From a virus (Duplodnaviria; Heunggongvirae; Uroviricota; Caudoviricetes): 26,759 bases of DNA. The DNA lies in the IMG/VR virus record IMGVR_UViG_2728369186_000003; one strand, given 5' to 3'. Positions 1,359-25,417 of this stretch are shown piece by piece. A model generated the notes under the pieces. That model saw only the letters and a list, made by a program, of their open reading frames with translations. It made no database searches and had not been told where the DNA came from. The position numbers were made by a program, and so were the translations under genes. Position 1 is the stretch's first letter. Each line of letters begins with the position of its first letter.

Positions 1359-4300
1359 TCAACGAATACTGATGCCGGAAGCGGCTTTTTTGGTCACAAT
1401 CACCGTACAGTCGGTGATATTGCCTGCCCCCTGATTGCCTTTCTGGAAAATCTTAAACTCCAGAGTGACGCTTCCCCTGCCACTCGGCATATCAATAACT
1501 GCACTGTAACTACCGGGAATGGCCCCTTTAGTTTCTCTGGATGCGATTAATACGCCGTTTTTGCGAACTTCAAAACCATAACCCGTGTATCGCGTGCCTC
1601 CTGGGTTATTTCCGCTCCCCGGATCGTCATACGCTATACCGTTAAAAATAATGGGCGGAATAATAATCTGGCGGTCAAAGTTATGATCATCGCTGATGGT
1701 GACTGTAACCGTACCGTTTGGTGTTTCCGTGTTACCCCACGTACCGACTTTTTTCGGGAAGGCTTTTGATACAGCTTTAACGAAATCTCCTCTGACCTGG
1801 GTCGCCTCCAGCATGCCCTTAATCGTACAGTTCTGGTTAATCGTGACATTGTTGAGCGTTCCTGAGTTCGCATTCACACTGCCACTGATATCCGCATTTT
1901 TCGCCGTCAGTCTCCCGTCTGATGTCAGGGAAAATGCCGGAGGATTACCGCCGCTGGTAATGGTGGGGGCCGTCAGGCGTTTCAGGAACACTTCATTCAT
2001 GAATATCTGATCGCCCTGACCAACAAACATCGGCTTTGTGTTGCCATTCGCAGGATTAATCATCGCAATCCTGTCTGCTGCCAGCAGCACCTGACTCTGC
2101 ATGCCGTCAGGGGTGTTCTCAATACCGGCACCGATACCCGCAATATAAAGGCGTCCGTCCTGCATCTGCTGCAGCTTCACTGCCCACATGCTGTTCAGGT
2201 TATTATTTGTATCAACCTGAACCTTCTGTATCTGCTGGATCGCTGCACTCTGGTCTTCCAGTTTCTTATTGACGGTCTGTGTTATTTCATTGCTGACATC
2301 CGTTATGGACGTCCTGATTTCAGTCAGGTCAGGCGCAAGCTGACCGTTATCAATCTGCGTCCACAGCTCCTGAGCCAGATGGGTTTTCCCTATCTCGCCT
2401 TTGAAAAAATCCAGATAGCCTGATGCATCATCACTCGGCTGACCGACAGCCTCCACGAATGCCGATTTGCCAACGGTGTTCACACTGCGAACGTAAAAAT
2501 AATAATCATGGCCCGGTTTGATATTGATACTGGCGGCTATCCAGTACAGCGCCGTACCAAGATAGCGCGCTGTGGTTTCAACCTGCCTGATATCCGCAAT
2601 CCGCTTTTCCGAGAACCAGAACTCAAACTGTACCGTCGGATCATAAACCGCAAGATGCGGCGTGGCGGTTATCTGAAAATACCCCGGTGTCAGCTCAATC
2701 TGCGACGGCGCTGCCGGTGCGGCAATCCGGAACGATACCGATGCCGGATCGCCCTGCTGCCCCCACGCATTTACTGCCCGGACTGTCAGCCTGTAGTTCC
2801 CCAGCGCCAGTTGTGTGAAGCGGTATGTGGTTTCCGCCGTCCGGGCTGTGCTGACCAGCCGCTCACTGCCGTCATCCGCTGCCACGGTCAGGCGAAGCAT
2901 GAAACTCACGCCCTTCACCACCTTCGGCGTATCCCAGCGGGCCAGTACCTGATACTCCCCGCTGTCTGCGGTGACTTCGGCAGTCAGGTGCTGCACTGCT
3001 GGCGGCGTGACACCATTCACCGTGCCGCTCTGGTCGCCGTCAAAGTGCGCCCCGTTATCCACGATGGCTTCTTTTTCCGGTACATGCTGCACGGCAGTGA
3101 TGGCATACGTACCGTCATCGTTCTCACGGATACTCACGCAGCGGAACAGGCGCTGGCGCAGCGTCGGCAGCTTCAGCCCCCACACGCTGTATCCGGCAAC
3201 GCCGTCAGGAACACGGCTCACTTTTACCTTCACGCCGTCGGTGACGGACTGGGCCTCCACGCTGACCGGATTGCCACTTCCGTCAACCAGGCTTATCAGC
3301 GTGGTACCGGAGGATGGCAGCGTGATTTCACGGTCGAGCGTCAGCGTCCGGGTCTGGCTGTTCACCGCCAGCACGCGCCCGCCGGTGCTGATCCCCGCAT
3401 AGTCATCATCACAGATTTCAATGACATCACCTGGTACATGGCGAAGCCCTTCGGCACCCACGCTGAAGTCCACGGTCTGCGTTTCCAGCAGTTCTGTTTT
3501 AATCAGCCACAGCCCGGCGCGGTGTGCCTGCCCCCGACTGGTACAGCCAAAGGCATCCATCTTCGTGACGTTACGACCGTAACGGGCAATGGCCTGCGTG
3601 TCCTCCACAAGCTCTGTCGCCGTCTCCCAGCCGTTATCCGGGTCAATCCAGTTCACCTCAACGGCATTATGGCGGTCCTTCAGGGCGCTGAAGCTGTAGC
3701 GGAACGGCGCACCATCATCCGGCATCACCACATTACTGCGGTTATAGGTCCACACCTTATCCGACGGTCGGTCCTGCACGAACGTCAGCGTCTGCCCGTT
3801 CCATACCGGCATACAGCGCATCGCCGAGCAGAAATCACTGAGAACATCCCACGCCTTACGCTGTGTGGTCAGCCAGGCATTACAGGTGATGCGCGGCTCC
3901 GTGCCGCCAAAACCGTCCGGCACCGACTGGTCGCAACACTGGCCGATGACATACAGCGCCCATTTATCCACATCTGCCGCACCAAGACGTTTACCCATGC
4001 CGTAGCGCGGGTGGGTCAGCATATCCCACAGACACCAGGCCATGTTGTTGCTGTATGCTGGCTTAAACGTTCCGTCCCAGATACCGCTGTATTGCCGCGT
4101 CTGCGGGTTATAGTTCGACGGCACCTGCAGAATGCGCCCGCGCAGATGATAATTACGGCTCACCTGCTGGCTGCCGAACTGCTCCGAATCCACCTGCACG
4201 CCGACCAGTGCCGTGTTCGGGTAGCACTGTTTCACATCGATGATTTCGNNNNNNNNNNACGCCCGCGAAGATGATAATTACGGCTCACCTGCTGGCTGCC

Positions 4301-5041: not shown

Positions 5042-5687
5042 TCAGCGACCAATCACCACAACCTGACCACCGTCCCCTTCGTCTGCCGTGCTGATCTCCT
5101 GAGANNNNNNNNNNCGCGCATTTCCCCGTACAGAACAGGCAGAACATTGCCCTGGGCAACCATGTTATCCAGTGAGGAGAAATAGGTGTTCTGCTTACCG
5201 TTATCCGTTGTCTGTGTACGGGGAGTTCTGGCTTTCGGTGCCAGCATCTGCGCCACACCACCGAGCACCATACTGGCACCGAGAGAAAACAGGATGCCGG
5301 TCATACCACCGGCCCCAATGGCTGCCCCCCATGCTGCAAGGGTGGCTCCGGCGGTAAAGAATGATCCGGCAATGGCGGCAGCCCCCAGGACAATCTGGAA
5401 TACGCCCCCTGACTTGGCCCCGGCGACTCTGGGAACAATATGAATCACAGCGCCATCAGGCAGAGTCTCATGTAACTGCGCCGTTAACCCGGACGTGCTG
5501 ACGTCCCGCCCGGCAATCCGTACCTGATACCAGCCGTCGCTCAGTTTCTGACGAAACGCCGGGAGCTGTGTGGCCAGTGCCCGGATGGCTTCAGCCCCCG
5601 TTTTCACACGAAGGTCGATGCGGCGACCAAATCGTTGTAAATCCCCGTAAAGGCAGATGCGCGCCATGCCCGGTGACGCCAGAGGGN
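5042..5687 (-). CDS. I: Tail assembly protein I, lambda-like allele (N terminus lost in gap at 5688-5697, internal gap at 5105-5114)
   Basis: Between the gaps the minus strand encodes PLASPGMARICLYGDLQRFGRRIDLRVKTGAEAIRALATQLPAFRQ...NVLPVLYGEMR. After the 5105-5114 gap it continues SQEISTADEGDGGQVVVIGR with a TGA at 5042-5044. This matches my recollection of lambda gpI closely. Confidence 0.7.
5105..5114. other. Run of 10 N (assembly/scaffold gap)
   Basis: Literal N run; the roughly 90 bp following it (5115-5205) nearly repeats the sequence following the 5688-5697 gap. Confidence 0.95.
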
Positions 5688-5697
5688 NNNNNNNNNC
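5688..5697. other. Run of 10 N (assembly/scaffold gap)
   Basis: Literal N run separating two diverged copies of the gene I coding sequence. Confidence 0.95.
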
Positions 5698-6264: not shown

Positions 6265-6921
6265 TTGTCGGTGTACCTCTCTCGTTTGCTCAGTTGTTCA
6301 GGAATATGGTGCAGCAGCTCGCTGTCACCACAGTAAATGGCGGCATGATTCGGCACCGATGAACCAAAACAGCACAGCAGCACATCGCCCGGCTGCGCCG
6401 CTGACAACGGCACCTGATACAGCCCTGTGGCCTCCAGATTATCCAGATAGAGATTCTGACCGTGACGCCACCAGTCATCCTCGCGATGAAAATCCGGCAT
6501 CTCAATCCCCGCCAGATGGTAAGCATCCCGGAACAGCGTGTAACAGTCCGTCACCCCGTGCTCAAAGCGCCGCCCGGAAAGATGTGGCACACAGCGGAAC
6601 TTGTGAATCGCCCCCCGGCAAACCAGCCACCACGGCAAATCACTCTGCACCTGCAGCCGCCGGTCGGTCTCACTCAGCCAGGGCAGACCACCGGGGTGGC
6701 TGTGGACCAGCGCCACAATCTCACCCTGNNNNNNNNNNCTCTGCCCGCAGCCAGTCCTCCGGCGACATCCGGAAATACTCCTCCGGCTCACCGGAGATAT
6801 TCACGCAGGGAAAATATCTTTCCCCCTCCGGTGTTCTCACCACGAAGCCGCACGACTCCGCTGGCGCACATCGCCGGGCGTGCGCCAGAATCGCTGATTC
6901 TGTCTCTGTCATGGGATTCAC
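6162..6921 (-). CDS. K: Tail tip assembly protein K (JAB/MPN plus NlpC/P60-like), spanning the gap at 6729-6738
   Basis: Track ORFs 6721..6921 (MNPMTETESAILAHARRCAPAESCGFVV...) and 6162..6791 (...QGEIVALVHSHPGGLPWLSETDRRL...GVTDCYTLFRDAYH...). The HSHPGG...S..D JAMM-like motif and Cys/His NlpC-like motif are as in lambda K. ATG overlaps the L stop (ATGA). Confidence 0.8.
6729..6738. other. Run of 10 N (assembly/scaffold gap) inside gene K
   Basis: Literal N run; flanking codons (...WLRAE / QGEIVAL...) suggest only a few nucleotides are actually missing. Confidence 0.95.
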
Positions 6922-17030: not shown

Positions 17031-18146
17031 TTAAATCCCTGCTTTTCTGAATACCTGTGCATCACGCTCACGGAGTTGCTTCAGCGTCAGCCATTCGCCT
17101 TTATCGGTGTAAAATTCATCTGGCGACATACCGCCATCCCGAATCAGCTTTGCCCGGGTTTCCCCCACAATCTGTTTTTGTCTGGTGTAAGGCTGACGCA
17201 AAAACCATTCCCTGTAGGTTGTATCTCCGGCCACCACGCCATCCATGCTGGCCCGCTCAGCCGGGGAAATATCACGAACATCAATACCCAGTTCCTTCGC
17301 TGATTTCAGAATGAACGTTTCCGTTGAGCGGCAGCAGAAATGAATTTTTCCCGGCCCATGCAAATAAGGCACACTGTGACCTACAGGTTTATTATCCAGC
17401 GTATATTTGAGGCGATCCCTGATTCGACATTGTGGCGTAGTACGATTATCAAGCGTTGATAACCATTGCTTACCCTTAATCAAATCATTATTCGCGCTGG
17501 CAAAACTCTCACGGGCAGTAGCAGCAAGATGTCCAACCGCTGTTTTTGCAATGCTGGCCGCATTAGCCCGGCTCATCTGCAATGCACCATCCTGAAATCC
17601 CTTGCTGACATGTCCCCGAATTTTTCTTGCGATCTGCTCATTGGTATCCCCCAGCAAAAAACCCTGACGCACCGTATTTGTTATGCGTCTGAGCCGATCC
17701 GCCTCAAGATCCAAGGCCCACTCACTGAGCAGTCGTCCCTGGAATGGTCGCGCCATTGCAGCGGCGTAAAGTGCATCAGAAGATATACCAACCAGAGGGT
17801 GAACATCAGCAACAAAATCAGGTAGCAGAGAATCAAACAGACTTAACTGATAACCAGCCTCATAAATTGCCAGCTCGTTCAGCTCTCCGGAGAGACTGGT
17901 AAACATGCTGTTAATAGCAGCGCGGTTAACCTCTCTGACACTCGCCAGAAGTGACTCTAGGCGCGTAACGGTAAAACTACCAGGATCGAGGCTGTCCAGT
18001 GCTACCAGCAGGCGAGCTGTAAGCTCCGCATCGCTGTCATTCAGTATTTTCACCATTCTGGCAGCCACACCAGTGCTATAGCGGGATATCCAGACTGCAT
18101 GAGCAATTGATTCATCACGCAGCCGTTCATTCACGGTTTGCATCAT
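17031..18146 (-). CDS. Head morphogenesis / minor head protein (Mu gpF / SPP1 gp7-like), putative
   Basis: 371-aa ORF directly downstream of the portal gene, overlapping its end by 20 nt. Assigned by synteny (terminase, portal, MuF-like, scaffold, capsid). Confidence 0.55.
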   Translation of the reverse strand: MMQTVNERLRDESIAHAVWISRYSTGVAARMVKILNDSDAELTARLLVALDSLDPGSFTVTRLESLLASVREVNRAAINSMFTSLSGELNELAIYEAGYQLSLFDSLLPDFVADVHPLVGISSDALYAAAMARPFQGRLLSEWALDLEADRLRRITNTVRQGFLLGDTNEQIARKIRGHVSKGFQDGALQMSRANAASIAKTAVGHLAATARESFASANNDLIKGKQWLSTLDNRTTPQCRIRDRLKYTLDNKPVGHSVPYLHGPGKIHFCCRSTETFILKSAKELGIDVRDISPAERASMDGVVAGDTTYREWFLRQPYTRQKQIVGETRAKLIRDGGMSPDEFYTDKGEWLTLKQLRERDAQVFRKAGI

Positions 18147-19533
18147 TGATTTCCATCAACATTACACTCTGATTTTTTAATTCATCGATCACATCCTCTG
18201 GACGGGAATCCTGATCGATAAATTTCAACGCCTGCAACACCCGAACCGCATCAATCTGACGTATATCACCGCCCTGACGCAATGACTGAACAGCCAGCGC
18301 GGAGGATGAGTCAAACACCTGGGCAGATACATCCAGTTCAGTGCGCACATCCACATTGCCACCGCAACTCTCTCCGCTCCATTCCGCCATTATCTGGAGA
18401 ATATTATCGAGGGCATCTTCGAGGGAGTTCGCCATTGTATAAAGCGGCGAGTGTTCCTGCATCCGCTCTTCATTAGTCTGATCAACAGATTTGGTGGATG
18501 TATTTTCAGCCCGCAGAAGTTTAGCGCCGGCATGACGCATCTGATTTTCCAGCTTCTCAAGTGATGTTTCGCCAGATTCTATCGCTGCGCCACTATGTTC
18601 AACATATTCGAGGCCATTTTTTGTTCTGTCCTCAAAAATCGTAGCCGTGGATGCACCAACCGTCAGTTCTTCATTCCTGTCCAGCCCGTAGGCCACCAGC
18701 AATGGAACGCGGGCAACATGAAGAATATTGTCCTGCTCGCTCTGGCTTTGCCAGTGCTTGATATTCAGCAAGCCAAGATTAAGCAATGGCGGTGTACCAC
18801 GCATAAACCCTGTTTTCTTCGTATACAGTGTTACCAGAGGAATATCATCACGGCTGGTATTCCATGACTCATGAAGCATCCAGACAGATTCGCCATTAGT
18901 ACCTTCGCTGCGTCGATAAATTTCTACTCGACGGGGCATAATATGGCGGATCTGCTCCACCTTCTTCTGCCCGAAATCATCACCATCAATAATGATGACC
19001 TCTTTTATACGCAAATCAGTGAGAACAACTTTCCCTTTTTCAACTTTCGATTTCCATCCAATAACCTGGCGTGGATTCAGCATCGTAACGTACGGGCGAC
19101 CACCGGCCGCGTTTTCATCGGCTTTTGTCCGAATCTCGTTCATATCCGTTCGTGGATAGTCCACCAGCGCATGTGCCACACCATACTGAAATGCGAGACT
19201 GAAAAATTGCTGCGCCCACACATCCAGTCGGCTCCCCTCCATGTCGATATTTTCTGCATATTCCCTGATTTTTTCCGGCGTTTCCTCACTCAATACTGTC
19301 GGCTCTGCAAATATGCGCCCAATATTTTGTTTGATGCTTTCTTCATACACAGGAAGTAACGTAGCCACAGACAGGCGTTTTTTATAAGCGTCTTCATCTT
19401 CATTAGGCCATTTGGGGAGATAATTTTCCCCCTGCCTGCGCATTTCAAGCGTACCGCCCATCAATGCGTCGTTAATATCCCACGCCTCCAGCATATCGTT
19501 ATAGTCGAGGTTGGGTGTTGATATATCAGCCAT
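18127..19533 (-). CDS. Portal protein
   Basis: 468-aa ORF starting 2 nt after the terminase large subunit stop. Size and position typical of portal proteins; acidic C-terminal tail. Confidence 0.7.
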   Translation of the reverse strand: MADISTPNLDYNDMLEAWDINDALMGGTLEMRRQGENYLPKWPNEDEDAYKKRLSVATLLPVYEESIKQNIGRIFAEPTVLSEETPEKIREYAENIDMEGSRLDVWAQQFFSLAFQYGVAHALVDYPRTDMNEIRTKADENAAGGRPYVTMLNPRQVIGWKSKVEKGKVVLTDLRIKEVIIIDGDDFGQKKVEQIRHIMPRRVEIYRRSEGTNGESVWMLHESWNTSRDDIPLVTLYTKKTGFMRGTPPLLNLGLLNIKHWQSQSEQDNILHVARVPLLVAYGLDRNEELTVGASTATIFEDRTKNGLEYVEHSGAAIESGETSLEKLENQMRHAGAKLLRAENTSTKSVDQTNEERMQEHSPLYTMANSLEDALDNILQIMAEWSGESCGGNVDVRTELDVSAQVFDSSSALAVQSLRQGGDIRQIDAVRVLQALKFIDQDSRPEDVIDELKNQSVMLMEINDANRE

Positions 19534-19535
19534 AA

Positions 19536-20846
19536 TTAAATCCGAAGTGATGTGACTCTTCCGGTCGGTTTGACAATAGGGAATTGCTTAACGATGAAAT
19601 AACCTCCGGCATCATTCGGGTGATCATTGCCAGATTTTTTATCAGGCTCCCCCTTATCATCCCAGACCTGTTGCTCCAGAGATTCGGCATATACCGGACA
19701 ACGCTTCACATTAACTTTATAGCGACGCTCACCATTGGCATTGCAGAACATTGCATTCATTGAGTTAACGCGATCTTTTACTGGCGGGTTCGAGCTGTTC
19801 ACCACAACGTTAAAACCTGCCTGCTTAAGCTGGGCTATATCCGTCGTACTTGCGTTACTTGATTTTCTGGAATCTCCGGAAGCATCTGGATAAATATAAA
19901 TCTCCCTCACTTTCCGGTAATCATGCCCGTCATACAGCCAGAAGCGTTCTTTAATGAGGCGGATCATATCCGGCGTATCGTAGGCATTGATGATTTCAGT
20001 TACCGCACATGGAAGCCCCAAACGCAGCACATGGACGATTCCCGCCATCTTTCCAACGTTAAAATCCATCCCAATATAAATCGGCTCCCCTGGCTGCTCC
20101 ACTTCTTCGCAATTATTCAGTTTCCGGTCAAACTGATGGTAAACAGTACCACTTGTCAGGTTAGTAAACCGTCCTAGAAGATAGGCTTTAATCAGCTCTG
20201 GAGGGTATGATTCAAGAAGTGAAGGAATGTAATCTGCTGGCAGGTTCTTTTCATTATCGAAAGTAGATGCCTGCACCAGACCATACAGTGAGGCCAGCTC
20301 TGTTTTTTCACGCACGGCTTTAACAAACTGCTCGTAGACAAATTTGAATCCTTCCGGCGTGGTTGTAACGTCAATACCGTTGCGAAGTCCATCAATCTTA
20401 TAACGCATACGCGCAATTATCTTGCGCCACGCCGTTCTGGCTTTTTCCTTCGGCAAAATGTCCAGTTCATCCACCAGCGCATTACCAATTTTGAAACCGA
20501 CGATCGTTTGTGGCTTCTCCATCGATCTGCAGATAGTGGTTCCCCGATACTGGCGTCCGTAATAAAAGTGAACCTCTTTATTTCCCTCATTAATTTTTAC
20601 GTTCAATCCCCAGTCAGCAGCAACTTCTTCCACTGTAGGGTAAAAAATATCGCGAATTTGGGGATACGTTGGCGCAAAATATCCCTGATTTATACCTGGA
20701 TGCTCCCAAATCCCCTTGCATATGCCGCCACACCCAACCCATGTTTTGCCCGAGCCAAAACCAGCAATATAGGCTTTAAATTTATGGGGCATTGAAAGAA
20801 ATCGCGCCTGAGGCACATTAAGCGTCGGAGAGATCATCTTCATCAC
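19536..20846 (-). CDS. Terminase large subunit
   Basis: 436-aa ORF with N-terminal Walker A-like P-loop (YIAGFGSGKTW) and a C-terminal nuclease-type region with conserved acidic residues (IYIGMDFN...YPDASGD). Follows the small subunit gene with overlap. Confidence 0.85.
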   Translation of the reverse strand: MMKMISPTLNVPQARFLSMPHKFKAYIAGFGSGKTWVGCGGICKGIWEHPGINQGYFAPTYPQIRDIFYPTVEEVAADWGLNVKINEGNKEVHFYYGRQYRGTTICRSMEKPQTIVGFKIGNALVDELDILPKEKARTAWRKIIARMRYKIDGLRNGIDVTTTPEGFKFVYEQFVKAVREKTELASLYGLVQASTFDNEKNLPADYIPSLLESYPPELIKAYLLGRFTNLTSGTVYHQFDRKLNNCEEVEQPGEPIYIGMDFNVGKMAGIVHVLRLGLPCAVTEIINAYDTPDMIRLIKERFWLYDGHDYRKVREIYIYPDASGDSRKSSNASTTDIAQLKQAGFNVVVNSSNPPVKDRVNSMNAMFCNANGERRYKVNVKRCPVYAESLEQQVWDDKGEPDKKSGNDHPNDAGGYFIVKQFPIVKPTGRVTSLRI

Positions 20847-21912
20847 TCCTTAATCTGGCATCAACCACATTAATATTGATCGCCACAGGCTGGGGATGTT
20901 CATTATCCTCCACCGTTTCGATCTCTTTGCGCAGCTTCTGGTTCTCTATTCTGCGCCGTTCAATTTCCAGTTCCTGTAGCCGCTTATCTGCACATAATGC
21001 CCCGCCAGCAGAAAGCAAACGCAACAATTCACGCCGGGCGGCAGCCTTATCCTCCAGCAGGATCTCAACACCGTATTTTCCGAGCTTTGACCCTGCATAT
21101 AATTGCCGCGCATCCCCATCAAGCAGTGTGGTATCAGCCATATAAAGCTGTCCTGTTCCCTCACCGCAGCACTTCGGGCAATCAGGATTGGGTATGGCGT
21201 TATCAACAAAGCCGAGGCCTCCATATTCCGGCTCGGGTTTACCATCTCTGGAGGCCTGTGCCGCAGCCTTATCGAATTCTGCAATATCACGCCACTGGTA
21301 GAGATGATTCTCGCCCCAGCAATAACGGCAGTTAACACGGCGAAATTGTGCCAACTGATTGGGGTCGGCCTGGACAATGGCCATCAACTGGCTCACCAGT
21401 AAATCCAGGTCTGCGGTATAGCGTTTCTGGTACTGATTGCGGAAGTAGCTGATAGCACGATAAACCCTGGCATTTCTAAGCATACGGCTGGCGTTGCTGT
21501 TAGCTGTCGCACCTTGCCCCTCATAACCAGCCAGTCGGTATGCCTCTGTCGGCTTTTTCCCCTGAGCAACCAACATGGCGAATTTTGCCTGCTGGTCAGA
21601 AATACCGAATTCATCGGGGCAGAACGAAATTTCTTCCGTGTCCCCCTCAATCAGGAGTGCATCGGATACAGCCTTTTTTTTCTGAGATTTTCCGTTCTGC
21701 CTTTGCGCAGTCTGCGCAGTTTTTTTTCGCGCACTTTTTTGCGCAGTTTTGCGCATTTCTTTCTGCGCATTTTTCGGAGTTTTTTTGATGTAACGACGGG
21801 CTGTTGCGTAGTTCAGTCCCCTTGCTTCACACCATGCCACCGGAGATATACCGGAGCGGGTGTATTCAGCAATATACTCCTGCTGCAACGCCCCCCAGTC
21901 CGGTCTGCTCAT
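20818..21912 (-). CDS. Terminase small subunit, putative (unusually long, with Lys-rich linker and Cys-pair motifs)
   Basis: 364-aa ORF directly upstream of the large subunit. N-terminal HTH-like segment (SGISPVAWCEARGLNYATARRYIKK), a Lys/Ala/Gln-rich low-complexity linker (KNAQKEMRKTAQKSARKKTAQTAQRQNGKSQKKK), and CxxC...CxxCC pairs (CRYCWGENH...CPKCCGEG). Confidence 0.55.
   Translation of the reverse strand: MSRPDWGALQQEYIAEYTRSGISPVAWCEARGLNYATARRYIKKTPKNAQKEMRKTAQKSARKKTAQTAQRQNGKSQKKKAVSDALLIEGDTEEISFCPDEFGISDQQAKFAMLVAQGKKPTEAYRLAGYEGQGATANSNASRMLRNARVYRAISYFRNQYQKRYTADLDLLVSQLMAIVQADPNQLAQFRRVNCRYCWGENHLYQWRDIAEFDKAAAQASRDGKPEPEYGGLGFVDNAIPNPDCPKCCGEGTGQLYMADTTLLDGDARQLYAGSKLGKYGVEILLEDKAAARRELLRLLSAGGALCADKRLQELEIERRRIENQKLRKEIETVEDNEHPQPVAININVVDARLRSDEDDLSDA
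21700..21775. repeat. Cluster of short direct repeats (TGCGCA core separated by T/A runs) inside the terminase small subunit gene
   Basis: Plus strand: ctttgcgcagtctgcgcagttttttttcgcgcacttttttgcgcagttttgcgcatttctttctgcgcattttt. At least six TGCGCA-type units with T7-T8 homopolymers; encodes the KTAQK-type peptide repeats. Confidence 0.6.
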
Positions 21913-21915
21913 CAG

Positions 21916-22167
21916 TTAGTCCTGATTTTTATCCACCCTGAGTAGTTCGCGCAGAGCAAAGGCATCCCCTTTTCTGGCAAGCTTAAACAATGCCGCTCGT
22001 AACTCGGCTTCACCTTTCGCTCTGCCCTTACGGATGGCCGCATAAAAATCTGTCATTGCTTCCCGATTTTCTTTCAGTCGGTTCAGATCAACATCCAGAA
22101 CGTCAGCGATTTGTTGTGCAGTCATCCGGCACGCTGCCAGAGACTCGACTTTCGAATACGGAATCAT
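21916..22167 (-). CDS. Small HTH-like protein (83 aa), function unknown
   Basis: MIPYSKVESLAACRMTAQQIADVLDVDLNRLKENREAMTDFYAAIRKGRAKGEAELRAALFKLARKGD... The ATG at 22165-22167 is preceded by GGGGGTGA. Stop is 4 nt before the terminase small subunit start; its 5' end overlaps the upstream gene by 65 nt. Confidence 0.5.
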   Translation of the reverse strand: MIPYSKVESLAACRMTAQQIADVLDVDLNRLKENREAMTDFYAAIRKGRAKGEAELRAALFKLARKGDAFALRELLRVDKNQD

Positions 22168-23059
22168 TTGTCACCCCCATTGATATGCAGGGTGTCTTCT
22201 TCCTGTATTTTTCGTGAAGGATTTTTACTGCAGCGTTGTTCCAGGTGACCTGATGGTGAATGCGTTTATGGCTGGCACCCATCAGTGAGATTTTTACGCA
22301 CGACGGCGAATACATGACGGAGTAAAAACTTTTAACGTAGGTTCCGGAATCCAGATACAGCTCGGTCATTCCGCCGCTGTTTTTCTGCGTCTGTTTCTGC
22401 CCTAACTGGACAGCACCGATCGTCATAAACAATTCACCACAGCGACCGAGATTCGTGTACGTATTCACATCCTCGTTAATGCGCCCCATGAATGAGAACG
22501 GTCGATCAACCGAACAGATAAAGCTGTTCATTGCCTTGCGTTTCACCCACGAAGCATGGCCGCCATTGTCACCAAGAAAATCCCCGCCCTGCGACATAGC
22601 GATGGAAAGCGCGGGTATTGATTCGTAATACGCCAGCATTTCAGAAAGGATCGCATCCAGTTTCCTTATCGGGAAATAGGCCTGGTCATAGTTGCGATCC
22701 ACCCGAAACTGGAACTCGTGATAATCATCATCGAGCTGAATGAAGTATTTACACCCGACCAGTTTTGCCAGGTCGAAACAGGCATTACGGGCGTAAAAAA
22801 TTGAGCGGCGATCACCAAAATTATCGGCTTCGTCAAAACGACTGGCAATATCGGCTTTGGAAAATACCAGCACCTGTTCACCAAATTCAGCCATGTACTG
22901 ATGCCGTGTCTTATCTTCATCATCAACAACGATAAAAATTTTCCCGGTATAGCCAGCACGACGCAACGTCCGGTAAGTCAGAACTTTGTCCGGTCGCCCG
23001 TGAGTCAGAATAAAGGCGCAAAAATCATCACGCATATTCCTCCTCCTCCTCCCCGCCAT
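22103..23059 (-). CDS. Uncharacterised protein with two DxD-like acidic motifs (possible GT-A-like glycosyl/nucleotidyl transferase)
   Basis: 318-aa ORF. The N terminus has a strand-helix-strand pattern ending in an acidic cluster (FILTHGRPDKVLTYRTLRRAGYTGKIFIVVDDEDK), and a second motif lies about 60 residues later (FIQLDDDYHEF), reminiscent of GT-A fold enzymes. Family assignment is a guess from motifs only. Overlaps the ParB-like gene by 32 nt; alternative start 23035. Confidence 0.5.
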   Translation of the reverse strand: MAGRRRRNMRDDFCAFILTHGRPDKVLTYRTLRRAGYTGKIFIVVDDEDKTRHQYMAEFGEQVLVFSKADIASRFDEADNFGDRRSIFYARNACFDLAKLVGCKYFIQLDDDYHEFQFRVDRNYDQAYFPIRKLDAILSEMLAYYESIPALSIAMSQGGDFLGDNGGHASWVKRKAMNSFICSVDRPFSFMGRINEDVNTYTNLGRCGELFMTIGAVQLGQKQTQKNSGGMTELYLDSGTYVKSFYSVMYSPSCVKISLMGASHKRIHHQVTWNNAAVKILHEKYRKKTPCISMGVTNDSVFESRVSGSVPDDCTTNR

Positions 23060-23822
23060 GCATGATCTCCACCATGCGCTGCGTCATTCGGACAAATCCA
23101 TTTTCAATAGCCTGCTGATAATCAATGATCACCAGCGCCGACTCCTCGAAAAGGCACTGAATTTCAGCGGGGGCATGAGCGTAATAGTCCGCAATTCTGC
23201 TGAAATTAAACACTGTGTGACGTTCTGCCGCACACAGGAGGAATTTCTCAATATCAGGATCAAGGGACGCCGAACGTATCCGGCTGATCAGCTCCTGAGT
23301 TTTCGTATCGTCGTACAGTTCACTGATATCCGGTTTACCGCCCGACGGCTCATAAACAGGCGTATCAATTTTCGTCGTATACGGCTCCTCCTCATTTCCT
23401 GTACCGGGCAAAACATCCGTCAACAGTTCATCAATTTCTGTCGGGATGAAGCCTGTCAGGGAGACATCAAAATCAGCATTGATTAGGTCCGACAGCTCCA
23501 TCCGCAACAGATCTTCATCCCAGCCAGCATTCATCGGCAGGCGATTATCTGCCAGGCGGTACGCCTTTTTCTGCTCATCCGTCAGGCCAGACAGAACAAT
23601 GACCGGAACAGAATCCATTTTGAGCATTTCAGCCGCCATAACACGACCGTGACCCGCAATAATTTCGCCCTTTTCGTCAATCAGCACCGGATTAGTCCAG
23701 CCGAATTGCTTAATACTTTCTACCAGTTGTGCCACCTGCTCAGTACTGTGCGTCCTGGCGTTGTGCGCATACGGTGACAATTCTTGTAATGGGCGATAGA
23801 CTATCTTTAATTTCTCGCTCAT
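23028..23822 (-). CDS. ParB N-terminal (ParB/sulfiredoxin-like nuclease) domain protein
   Basis: 264-aa ORF. The N-terminal 100 aa carry the signature I.YRPLQELSPYAHNARTHS..Q...L..SI..FGW..PVLID..GEIIAGHGRVMAA..L....VPVIVL....D.Q..AYRLADNRL. The C-terminal half is acidic and ends in EEEEEYA. RBS AAGG is 5 nt upstream of the ATG at 23820-23822. Confidence 0.8.
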   Translation of the reverse strand: MSEKLKIVYRPLQELSPYAHNARTHSTEQVAQLVESIKQFGWTNPVLIDEKGEIIAGHGRVMAAEMLKMDSVPVIVLSGLTDEQKKAYRLADNRLPMNAGWDEDLLRMELSDLINADFDVSLTGFIPTEIDELLTDVLPGTGNEEEPYTTKIDTPVYEPSGGKPDISELYDDTKTQELISRIRSASLDPDIEKFLLCAAERHTVFNFSRIADYYAHAPAEIQCLFEESALVIIDYQQAIENGFVRMTQRMVEIMHGGEEEEEYA

Positions 23823-23850
23823 ACAGCCTTGCTTTATGAATAAAACGCAC

Positions 23851-23874
23851 CCCAGCAGCCAGTGCTACTGGGGG
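23851..23874 (-). terminator. Weak hairpin downstream of trkG (possible moron terminator)
   Basis: CCCCAG-(12-nt loop)-CTGGGG; on the minus strand followed by GCGTTTTATTCAT. Loop is long, so support is weak. Confidence 0.3.
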
Positions 23875-23959
23875 CGGAGGTGTTGCTGGTAAAGTTAGGT
23901 ATTGGATCAATGAGTGAGTCAACATAATATTAAACTCACAATTATAAATCAGCCATATA

Positions 23960-25417
23960 TTAGGAGCGCCAAAAAAAACCTGAAAACAATATAATAACAG
24001 GATAAATTTCAAGGCGACCAAGAATCATAGCTATGCACATTAAATATTTTGCAATGTCATTAAGCACTCCGAATGACGATGCAGTAGCCCCAAAACCTAA
24101 TCCCATATTATTAATACATGCAGCCACTGTTGCAAATGATGTAAGAAAATCATATCCCATACCATTTAACACCAGTATAAAAAACACCGTGAAGAGAGTA
24201 TAAAGAAAAAAGAAACTCCATACAGACCTCATTACACGATCTGTAACTATCTTCCCTCCTACATTTACACTCAACAACGCTCTGGGATGAGAAAGCTGAT
24301 TTATCTCGTGTTTGCTTTGTTTGAAAAGTATAAGAAATCGAAGTGACTTAATTCCACCACAGGTTGAACCTATACATCCCCCAAAGAAACTTGACAACAG
24401 CAAAAACACTATCGTGTGCGTGGGCCAGTTTGCATAATCCTGCGTAGCTAAACCATTATCAGTGAGCATGGAGCTGGCAAGAAAAAACGAATGAATAAAA
24501 CTTCCATGCAAGTCATACATACCTATATGCCAGACCTGGAAAGAGGTAACAATGATCACCCCTAAGGCTATTAACAGAAAGAAACGAAGTTCAATATCTC
24601 TGATTAAAGGTTTTATCGTTTTTCTGCTAATAACAATATACCAAAGAGTGAAGTTGAAAGCCGATAGCAGGGAAAAAGAACCAGCCACCAGCTCAACCAA
24701 ATAGTTATTAAAATATCCGATACTCTCGCTATGAGTTGAGAAACCACCAAGCGAAACTGTGGAAATCCCGTGACAAATAGCATCAAACAAAGGCATTCCT
24801 GCAAGTCTATAACAGACAATACAAGCAATACCTAATAAAGAATAAGTTATCCACAGTGTCCGTGACGTATCGGCCAGGCGGGGAGTGAGTTTGTCATCCT
24901 TAAATGGCCCCGGCATTTCTGACTGATAAAGCTTTGCACCACCAATACCCAATAATGGCAATACTGCAACCGCCAGAACAATAACTCCTAAACCACCTAT
25001 AAAATTTAACTGTGACCGATAGTACAAATATGCCCGAGGTAATGAACTAACATCATCAATTACAGTTGCTCCTGTTGTTGTTATTCCAGAAACCCCTTCA
25101 AACAGAGCATCAATGAACGTTAAATTAAGTTCTGAGTCAAACCATAAAGGGAATGCACTAATAACAGAAAACAAAATCCAAAACATTACAATTATAATAA
25201 ACCCATCACGGGTACGTAATTGAATGCCAGATTTCTTAGTTGTATACCACGCTCCGCCACCAATGCAAAAAAATATAACGAAAGTTATAAAGAAAACGAA
25301 CAGGCTTTTTTCTTTATAAAACAATGCTACAACCATTGGTGGCAACATTGAAAGACTATAGAGCCAAACCAGGAACCCACACATATGAGTAACAACTCTT
25401 ACATGAGATGTATTCAT
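23960..25417 (-). CDS. trkG: TrkG/TrkH-family potassium uptake membrane protein
   Basis: The track ORF (23960..25435) begins at a TTG; the first ATG is at 25415-25417 (MNTSHVRVVTHMCGFLVWLYS...), giving 485 aa. Many hydrophobic helices and repeated GxG-type selectivity-filter-like motifs (TTTGAT, LGGFS, GSTCGG, NMGLGFG). Recognised as E. coli Rac-prophage TrkG from memory. The gene is strikingly AT-rich compared with flanking phage genes. Confidence 0.85.
   Translation of the reverse strand: MNTSHVRVVTHMCGFLVWLYSLSMLPPMVVALFYKEKSLFVFFITFVIFFCIGGGAWYTTKKSGIQLRTRDGFIIIVMFWILFSVISAFPLWFDSELNLTFIDALFEGVSGITTTGATVIDDVSSLPRAYLYYRSQLNFIGGLGVIVLAVAVLPLLGIGGAKLYQSEMPGPFKDDKLTPRLADTSRTLWITYSLLGIACIVCYRLAGMPLFDAICHGISTVSLGGFSTHSESIGYFNNYLVELVAGSFSLLSAFNFTLWYIVISRKTIKPLIRDIELRFFLLIALGVIIVTSFQVWHIGMYDLHGSFIHSFFLASSMLTDNGLATQDYANWPTHTIVFLLLSSFFGGCIGSTCGGIKSLRFLILFKQSKHEINQLSHPRALLSVNVGGKIVTDRVMRSVWSFFFLYTLFTVFFILVLNGMGYDFLTSFATVAACINNMGLGFGATASSFGVLNDIAKYLMCIAMILGRLEIYPVIILFSGFFWRS

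Follow-up and report, generated by a model that had tools for sequence, protein, structure and literature searches.

A hexamer array within the small terminase gene of a Rac-type lambdoid prophage as the probable recognition part of a P1-like pac site

A hexamer-repeat pac site that lies inside a small-terminase gene and is bound by the gene's product, PacA, is already known from phage P1, in which pac spans 161 bp within pacA and includes seven TGATCA/G repeats with Dam sites, and in which synonymous mutation of the repeats lowers packaging about 9-fold (PMC10028697). In the annotated P1 genome (AF234172), TGATCA/G hexamers occur at nt 194-233 of pacA (four) and nt 324-380 (four), in two reading frames, with the integration host factor (IHF) site (nt 256-268) and the mapped cleavage (nt 278/284) both between the two clusters. 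Here we describe an array of TGCGCA hexamers in terS, the gene for the small terminase subunit (TerS), on a 26,759-nt stretch of viral DNA (IMG/VR record IMGVR_UViG_2728369186_000003; the whole stretch is referred to as the window), which comes from a lambdoid prophage of the Rac type in Escherichia coli. The TerS begins with an N-terminal helix-turn-helix (HTH), followed by a Lys-rich, disordered linker and a Terminase_2 core that carries a four-Cys insertion. The array at 21704-21769, in the DNA that encodes the linker, is likely the recognition part of pac, of P1-type build and with a new specificity.

Other described packaging systems share single features with this locus. The SPP1 pac overlaps the start of terS and has short repeated boxes and A-tract bending. 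As with G1P of SPP1 and SF6, the core of the window TerS falls in the Pfam family Terminase_2; DNA recognition by the HTH ring of pac-targeting small terminases is treated in PMC4737164. Unlike the SPP1 and SF6 proteins, the window TerS has an additional N-terminal HTH and tether, and specificity here apparently comes from this added domain. In lambda, cosB carries several short R sites of 16 bp, bound near the cut by the N-terminal HTH of gpNu1; they lie outside the terminase gene, together with an IHF site, and cos cutting by a GpA-type large subunit (TerL) leaves cohesive ends. The window hexamers, in contrast, are coding, and the window TerL is of the Terminase_6 type, with matches to Terminase_6N and Terminase_6C, while family searches with the window TerS gave no Nu1-type match; a preliminary description of the window had noted no lambda-type cos arrangement upstream of the terminase genes. 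As TerL enzymes of the Terminase_6 type are found in T4, P22 and SPP1, the window TerL fits headful packaging. In the headful enterobacterial temperate phage P22, pac likewise lies in the terS coding sequence (gene 3) (PMC11260489), but it is a single, asymmetric, non-repeated site of ~22 bp rather than an array, and the P22 TerS is unrelated and lacks this HTH.

Within 66 bp of the window terS there are five exact copies of TGCGCA and one copy with a single mismatch, the first starting 14 nt after codon 43. The hexamer is present 13 times in the window, with 12 expected, and 5 of the 13 are inside the array. When the window was simulated 1000 times with a first-order Markov model, five copies in 66 bp never arose, the simulated maximum being three copies (in 4 simulations); the array is the densest cluster of any non-trivial hexamer across the window. 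Four of the exact copies share a reading frame with the variant, xxT-GCG-CAx/CGx (Ala-Gln or Ala-Arg), while the copy at 21750 is in another frame. In relatives, the first codon of this latter copy is ATG, GTG, TTG or CTG (Met, Val or Leu), so that xTG is constant, and the variant site is a perfect TGCGCA in most close relatives.

The preliminary description had placed at least six TGCGCA cores, separated by T7-T8 runs, in the Lys-rich linker of a small terminase gene. Both the cluster and its location hold, the latter through a 364-aa terS open reading frame (ORF) with Pfam and PHROG matches, in which the array encodes the Lys-rich stretch KNAQKEMRKTAQKSARKKTAQTAQ (aa 48-70); the count has to be lowered to five exact copies plus the variant. 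The long T runs are also real, but only one of T7 or more lies within the array while two others flank it; runs of T4-T5 are likewise present between hexamers. Four A/T runs of at least 6 nt within 131 bp were matched in 2 of 1000 simulations. The AT skew of the linker-coding segment (21628-21780) is -0.53 to -0.60, and a wedge model over 60-100 bp places the segment centred at ~21780 in the top 0.1-0.4% of the window for predicted curvature, a figure that is only indicative. No repeat cluster was found upstream of terS between 21913 and 22200.

Three scans of IMG/VR together with phage records provided 145 loci, 112 of them unique, and 30 non-redundant terS genes sharing the HTH, from phages of E. 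coli, Klebsiella, Yersinia, Providencia, Pasteurella and Vibrio, from Stx-type phages and from metagenomic viral contigs. All 30 carry 5-9 copies of one hexamer within 250 nt past the HTH, the distance between the last HTH codon and the first copy being 0-50 nt in representatives. The arrays hold 23.8 hexamers per kb and 113 kb of flanking DNA 0.50 per kb, a 48-fold difference. Even distant terS genes with nothing but the N-terminal domain in common have a hexamer cluster in the same position. The linker of a Klebsiella prophage TerS (39% identical) has six TGCGCA copies in all three frames, reading TAQ, PAQ, LR and CA; phage PHB10 has three copies, and the Stx-type phages GER2 and PhiR12_3 have five to seven. 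In a Yersinia phage, Klebsiella phage RothD, Providencia phage PSTCR3 and Pasteurella phage Pmp11 the hexamer is TGCGAA/TTCGCA instead, in five to nine copies, and the Pmp11 linker, '..NCETNCESNCET..', is explicable only as the translation of the DNA motif. Exact hexamers are kept among terS genes that are just 34-44% identical.

How the copies are translated also points to the DNA. The 137 array copies of TGCGCA are read as x-Ala-Gln/His (110), [Met/Leu/Val]-Arg (21) or Cys-Ala (6). Copies of the TGCGAA class, 36 direct and 12 inverted, are read as x-Ala-Asn/Lys (28) or Cys-Glu (8) and, when inverted, as Asn-Ser-Gln (11) or, in another frame, Ile-Arg-Lys (1). The in-frame TGCGCA copies alone specify 14 tripeptides, with 12 different residues preceding Ala. 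Using the same dipeptides elsewhere in the same loci as controls, the codon before Ala ends in T in 95% of array cases and 18% of controls, and the Ala codon is GCG in 92% and 43%, respectively (Fisher p 7.5e-40 and 2e-17); these p-values overstate independence, since the sequences are related and repeats arise by duplication. The TGCGAA class behaves in the same way at synonymous sites. In the window's own clade, the hexamer columns are about 3-fold less variable than the remaining linker, and indels take out whole repeat units of 9 or 27 nt. Hexamer spacing shows no clear 10.5-bp phasing (7, 9, 10, 12 and 14 are common), and neither the spacing nor the lengths of the T runs are conserved among relatives. 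Given the use of several frames and the synonymous-site bias, the repeat is conserved at the DNA level. Compared across the 30 terS genes, the conserved unit is the hexamer and not the peptide, and the direction of this evidence is unambiguous despite the kinship of the sequences.

The reverse comparison started from the hexamers. Among the first 120 IMG/VR stretches with three TGCGCA copies spaced 3-9 nt, 76 encode the HTH within 700 nt, and in these the array begins -2 to +44 nt past it. In at least two of the remainder a contig end interrupts this same array; what is left consists of unrelated tandem repeats and of arrays in another context. On six viral contigs (L162, L186, L209, L244, L258 and L269), arrays of 5-7 TGCGCA copies look non-coding, and a PacA-like HTH could not be detected within 700 nt of them; some of these arrays immediately precede a gene start, and they may bind other proteins or divergent HTHs.

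The hexamer also covaries with the HTH. Where the third helix reads A-R-R-Y, the array is TGCGCA in 95 of 95 unique genes; where it reads A-K-R-Y, the array is TGCGAA/TTCGCA in all 16. This R/K position, Arg39 in the window, stands alone among 38 HTH columns in having no residue common to both classes. Both specificity classes are present on at least three core lineages: the Yersinia (K) core shares 49% identity with the window-type (R) core, the RothD-type (K) cores are 34-37% identical to R-class cores, and the core of PSTCR3 (K; L010) is 88% identical to that of an R-class locus (L087). As two cores this similar carry different HTH classes, the HTH and array appear to have been swapped as a unit, and comparison of these genes indicates that the two are exchanged together between terminase genes. 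We lean slightly towards a broader view, in which a PacA-like HTH and the tether DNA that is its site array form a mobile cassette for pac specificity, grafted onto at least three unrelated cores (PacA, phrog_1711; phrog_370 in Shiga-toxin phages; Terminase_2/phrog_51) with at least three specificities (TGATCA, TGCGCA and TGCGAA), the residue at position 39 (Arg or Lys) tracking the switch between the latter two. In K-class loci (e.g. L006, L009 and L010), the codons for T/S-A-K (ACT GCG AAA) in the recognition helix, at -19 nt from the HTH end, themselves spell TGCGAA, so that the HTH-coding DNA of this class contains one copy of its own presumed site.

The HTH itself connects the window to P1. 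Aligned with hhalign, the N-terminal family matches P1 PacA aa 1-64 over 38 columns (probability 93.4%, E 2.6e-7), and PHROG searches connect the families weakly in both directions, from the window TerS to phrog_1711, the PacA family (E 2.4e-4), and from PacA to phrog_370, the Stx/RothD-type TerS (E 1.9e-4). Judged from these profile comparisons, the TerS N-terminal HTH is homologous to the N-terminus of PacA. Searched by sequence, the N-terminal domain matched nothing in Pfam or the PDB. An AlphaFold2 (AF2) model of aa 1-50 from a diverse alignment is a three-helix bundle (helices 6-20, 24-31 and 35-38) with a predicted local distance difference test (pLDDT) score of 82.8, and most of the top matches that Foldseek gives for it are DNA-binding proteins with an HTH (Rex, IstA transposase, a DeoR-operator complex, Aca1 and Fis). 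The AF2 model of the full TerS (mean pLDDT 49.6) has three short helices within aa 6-42 and the Terminase_2 part after the linker, with aa 44-93 unstructured (pLDDT <50); it was too poor for a fold search. A relative of the N-terminal HTH of TerS and PacA (W..L....SG.S...WC...I) is repeated in tandem, 4-7 times, in six database proteins of 198-565 aa (P0142, P0196, P0226, P0228, P0253 and P0268); on first inspection these do not resemble terminases, and an association with transposons or regulators is possible.

In both P1 and the window, TG..CA-type palindromic hexamers lie inside the small-terminase gene just past the HTH codons and are read in more than one frame. Hexamer positions are largely conserved while the peptide drifts, as in Cronobacter phage JK004, whose PacA (57% identical) keeps most TGATCA positions with a different encoded peptide. 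By analogy, the window array is the positional and architectural counterpart of the experimentally established P1 pac, with a homologous reading domain whose binding is predicted. The two differ in the protein core, PacA (phrog_1711) in P1 and Terminase_2 (phrog_51) in the window, and in the phage, a P1-like plasmid prophage in one case and a lambdoid siphovirus prophage in the other.

For binding, stoichiometry, bending, cut position and packaging direction we infer the following. The PacA-like HTH of TerS (aa 1-44) would sit on a flexible, Lys-rich tether of ~50 residues, and each HTH would read one hexamer, Arg39 helping to read the fifth base pair. In an oligomeric TerS, several HTHs could bind the 5-6 close hexamers cooperatively, on DNA that the A-tracts between or beside the hexamers may make curved or bendable. 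The bound complex would recruit TerL, the nuclease/ATPase partner, which would cut nearby and start headful packaging in one direction, probably towards terL (leftwards in the window). As the tether is encoded by the array DNA itself, the binding domain and its sites would be one contiguous cassette that can move between terminase genes. The candidate pac site of the preliminary description, proposed on the general ground that pac is often a set of repeats within terS, is accordingly supported by conservation at the DNA level, covariation with an HTH residue, homology to PacA and a Terminase_6 TerL.

Several points weigh against this assignment. Copies in one gene, given their origin by duplication, are not independent observations, and the association with the R/K position may rest on few independent evolutionary events; the P1 helix is also A-R-R-Y yet reads TGATCA, so residue 39 is not the only determinant. 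The Foldseek matches of the N-terminal HTH were not significant (all E >0.8) and are consistent with an HTH without proving it. Two loci (L154 and L155) encode an A-R-R-Y HTH but have no TGCGCA array in the available DNA, which includes only ~230 nt upstream; the linker of L155 has repeated TAAAGC(T) motifs instead, possibly a further specificity class. Some hallmarks of P1 pac are also missing. Whereas the P1 hexamer, TGATCA/G, contains the Dam site GATC, neither TGCGCA nor TGCGAA does, as can be read off the sequence, and Dam control is therefore impossible in the window phage. P1 has an IHF site within pac, while a scan of 19333-22738 in the window for the IHF consensus WATCAANNNNTTR with at most one mismatch gave no match. 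In P1, 4 + 3-4 hexamers stand ~90 bp apart from ~70 nt after the HTH, whereas the window has its six in 66 bp; the window and its clade thus have a single cluster rather than two flanking a gap. A second cluster is present 150-220 nt further on in the Klebsiella type and some others, and about half of the other lineages are bipartite. Finally, a literature search aimed at virion ends, coverage and binding turned up no such data, either for this phage or for any other non-P1 member. Some phage records were set aside as evidence on ends: the vB_EcoS-xxx 'phage' records are predicted prophages rather than virion assemblies, so that their ends are uninformative; the record of phage phi315 (PV189403) was merely opened at the start of terL; and phage Gally of E. 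coli LF82, which has a coverage-mapped pac in terS, encodes an unrelated TerS of 140 aa.

It is possible, though we think it unlikely, that the array binds TerS for a regulatory job, as in terminase autoregulation or holding TerS on DNA, with the pac cut signal elsewhere. The comparative evidence ties the DNA site to the HTH and not to a function, two HTH-bearing terS genes are without an array, and the Terminase_2 core has its own HTH-like region, which could recognise pac as in SPP1/SF6. This explanation is less likely because the equivalent hexamers are the pac site in P1, the one experimentally studied homologue. In addition, there is no promoter-like site in or near the array, and the array moves with the HTH onto three different terminase cores, as expected of a module for packaging specificity.

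Even less probable is that the repeat is functionless as DNA, a by-product of replication slippage and of selection on the protein for a basic, low-complexity (K/T/A/Q) linker. The linker is disordered, it is the most variable and indel-prone part of TerS and loses whole units, Tandem Repeats Finder reports periods of 10, 12, 24 and 36, and 80% of TGCGCA copies are in the Ala-Gln frame, all of which this explanation would account for. However, the copies occur in three frames and encode unrelated peptides (CA, [MLV]R, CE and NSQ), and the synonymous-site bias is extreme relative to the same dipeptides in the same loci. As exact hexamers also persist at 34-44% TerS identity and covary with an HTH residue, a by-product origin seems already largely refuted, chiefly by the frame and synonymous-site data. 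That the palindromic hexamers and T runs are intrinsic terminators or RNA/DNA hairpins, for instance stopping antisense transcription into the late operon, is the most improbable of the three, as the TGCGAA class, with the same placement and conservation, is mostly direct and non-palindromic and cannot form hairpins, and as hexamer spacing and T-run lengths are not conserved, even though three terminator-like hairpins are predicted on the + (antisense) strand at 21703-21769 (4 in a 1-kb scan with 1.3 expected) and folding of the sense RNA is a little more stable than that of shuffled sequences (z -2.2, 4/200).

The preliminary description had considered the A8 runs prone to slippage, for which there is some support: the linker is an indel hot spot in which whole units are lost, and in one relative (L052, IMGVR_UViG_2529292883_000002, ~2620-2650) a change from A5 to A6 in the linker truncates TerS at 88 aa. 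In two database proteins (P0008 and P0016) the linker is frameshifted and then restored. These three cases are either real slippage mutants or homopolymer sequencing errors. The presence of hexamers in all three frames suggests that compensated linker frameshifts have been tolerated in evolution. In phage Rac-SA53 (L005, KU052037, 1450-2478), the junction of a 'gpO-terS fusion by deletion' is inside the array, the N-terminal HTH being lost and part of the array kept, which suggests that the repeats are a hot spot for recombination or deletion.

Coordinates of the array and of the surrounding genes are given in Table 1. The TerS assignment comes from Terminase_2 (PF03592; E 1.2e-8, 36.1 bits with a gathering cut-off of 26.1) and phrog_51 (E 6e-75). 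Many E. coli chromosomes match the terS region at 100% identity, among them those of strains 13KWH46, HB-Coli0 and EC93 over 20818-22170, and ~900 of 5426 complete E. coli genomes contain it; RefSeq annotation nearby lists lambda-like tail genes, a P22-type major capsid protein, portal, terL, terS, a ParB-like gene, trkG and lysis genes.

Table 1. Features of the terS region in window coordinates
Feature	Position	Strand	Remarks
Portal gene	18127-19533	-	Directly past terL, downstream of terS
terL, large terminase	19536-20846	-	Terminase_6N E 3.5e-32; Terminase_6C E 7.8e-11
terS, small terminase subunit, 364 aa	20818-21912	-	ORF; Pfam, PHROG; RefSeq 'terminase small subunit'
Terminase_2 core, aa 122-316	20965-21549	-	Own HTH-like helices; invariant CxxC...CxxC insertion
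Linker-coding segment (hexamer/A-tract array), codons 45-95	21628-21780	-	Proposed TerS-recognition part of pac
Long T runs on + strand (A runs, Lys codons, on coding strand)	21674-21786		T8 21674-81, T8 21720-27, T6 21735-40, T7 21780-86
Hexamer 6, TGCGCA	21704-21709		ACT GCG CAA
Hexamer 5, TGCGCA	21713-21718		ACT GCG CAG
Hexamer 4, one-mismatch variant	21728-21733	-	Coding TGCGCG, + strand CGCGCA; AGT GCG CGA, S-A-R
Hexamer 3, TGCGCA	21740-21745		ACT GCG CAA, T-A-Q
Hexamer 2, TGCGCA	21750-21755		Other reading frame; ATG CGC AAA, M-R-K
Hexamer 1, TGCGCA	21764-21769		AAT GCG CAG, N-A-Q
PacA-like three-helix HTH, codons 1-44	21781-21912	-	Predicted recognition helix Y35-K43 'YATARRYIK'

The insertion in the TerS core (aa 195-249; 21166-21330, - strand) has four invariant Cys, CRYC...CPKC (C195, C198, C245 and C248), and is zinc-ribbon-like; we know of no zinc ribbon in other small terminases. 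Adjoining terS upstream is an 83-aa ORF (21916-22167, - strand) that matches the middle of phrog_309 'terminase small subunit' (E 8e-23, profile 145-218 of 319) and has no Pfam match; its product could be a piece of a TerS-like protein or else a small DNA-binding accessory. Further upstream, a protein of the TET-associated-glycosyltransferase family (22103-23059, -; PF20691 E 6e-35; phrog_842 'beta-glucosyl-HMC-alpha-glucosyltransferase') is encoded overlapping a ParB_N-domain protein (23028-23822, -). The pair may serve DNA modification as a module, although neither a TET/JBP dioxygenase nor a methyltransferase was noticed when the ORFs of 19500-24500 and the L001 RefSeq annotation were examined. 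An IS3 element splits the ParB-like gene in strain 13KWH46. Elsewhere in the window, four 10-N runs (4249-4258, 5105-5114, 5687-5696 and 6729-6738) are masking or assembly gaps, apparently in the tail-fibre/tail-tip J region by analogy with L001.

In the literature that we searched, neither this array nor a pac site for phages of this type is described. What appears to be new is the specificity for TGCGCA or TGCGAA and its occurrence in lambdoid prophages of the Rac type, in Stx-converting phages and in many further temperate phages, together with a single-cluster form independent of Dam and IHF and the HTH with its tether-encoded sites as a mobile cassette. Very few pac sites are known, and even for ES18, a well-studied transducing phage, pac is still undefined (PMC11260489). 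If the rule that a PacA-like HTH is followed by a hexamer array is true, pac would be predictable from sequence in hundreds of temperate phages of enterobacteria, Pasteurella and Vibrio, which would locate the packaging starts of Rac-type prophages, of the medically important Stx-converting phages and of many Klebsiella, Yersinia, Pasteurella and Vibrio phages. The origin and direction of lateral transduction from such prophages would then be predictable as well. It would also provide small, portable pac cassettes for engineering phagemids and transducing particles, as is already done with P1 pac, and a simple code for protein-DNA recognition, in which the change R39K should switch TGCGCA to TGCGAA. 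The array would likewise be a clear case of dual coding, with a DNA-binding array dictating the sequence of a protein linker.

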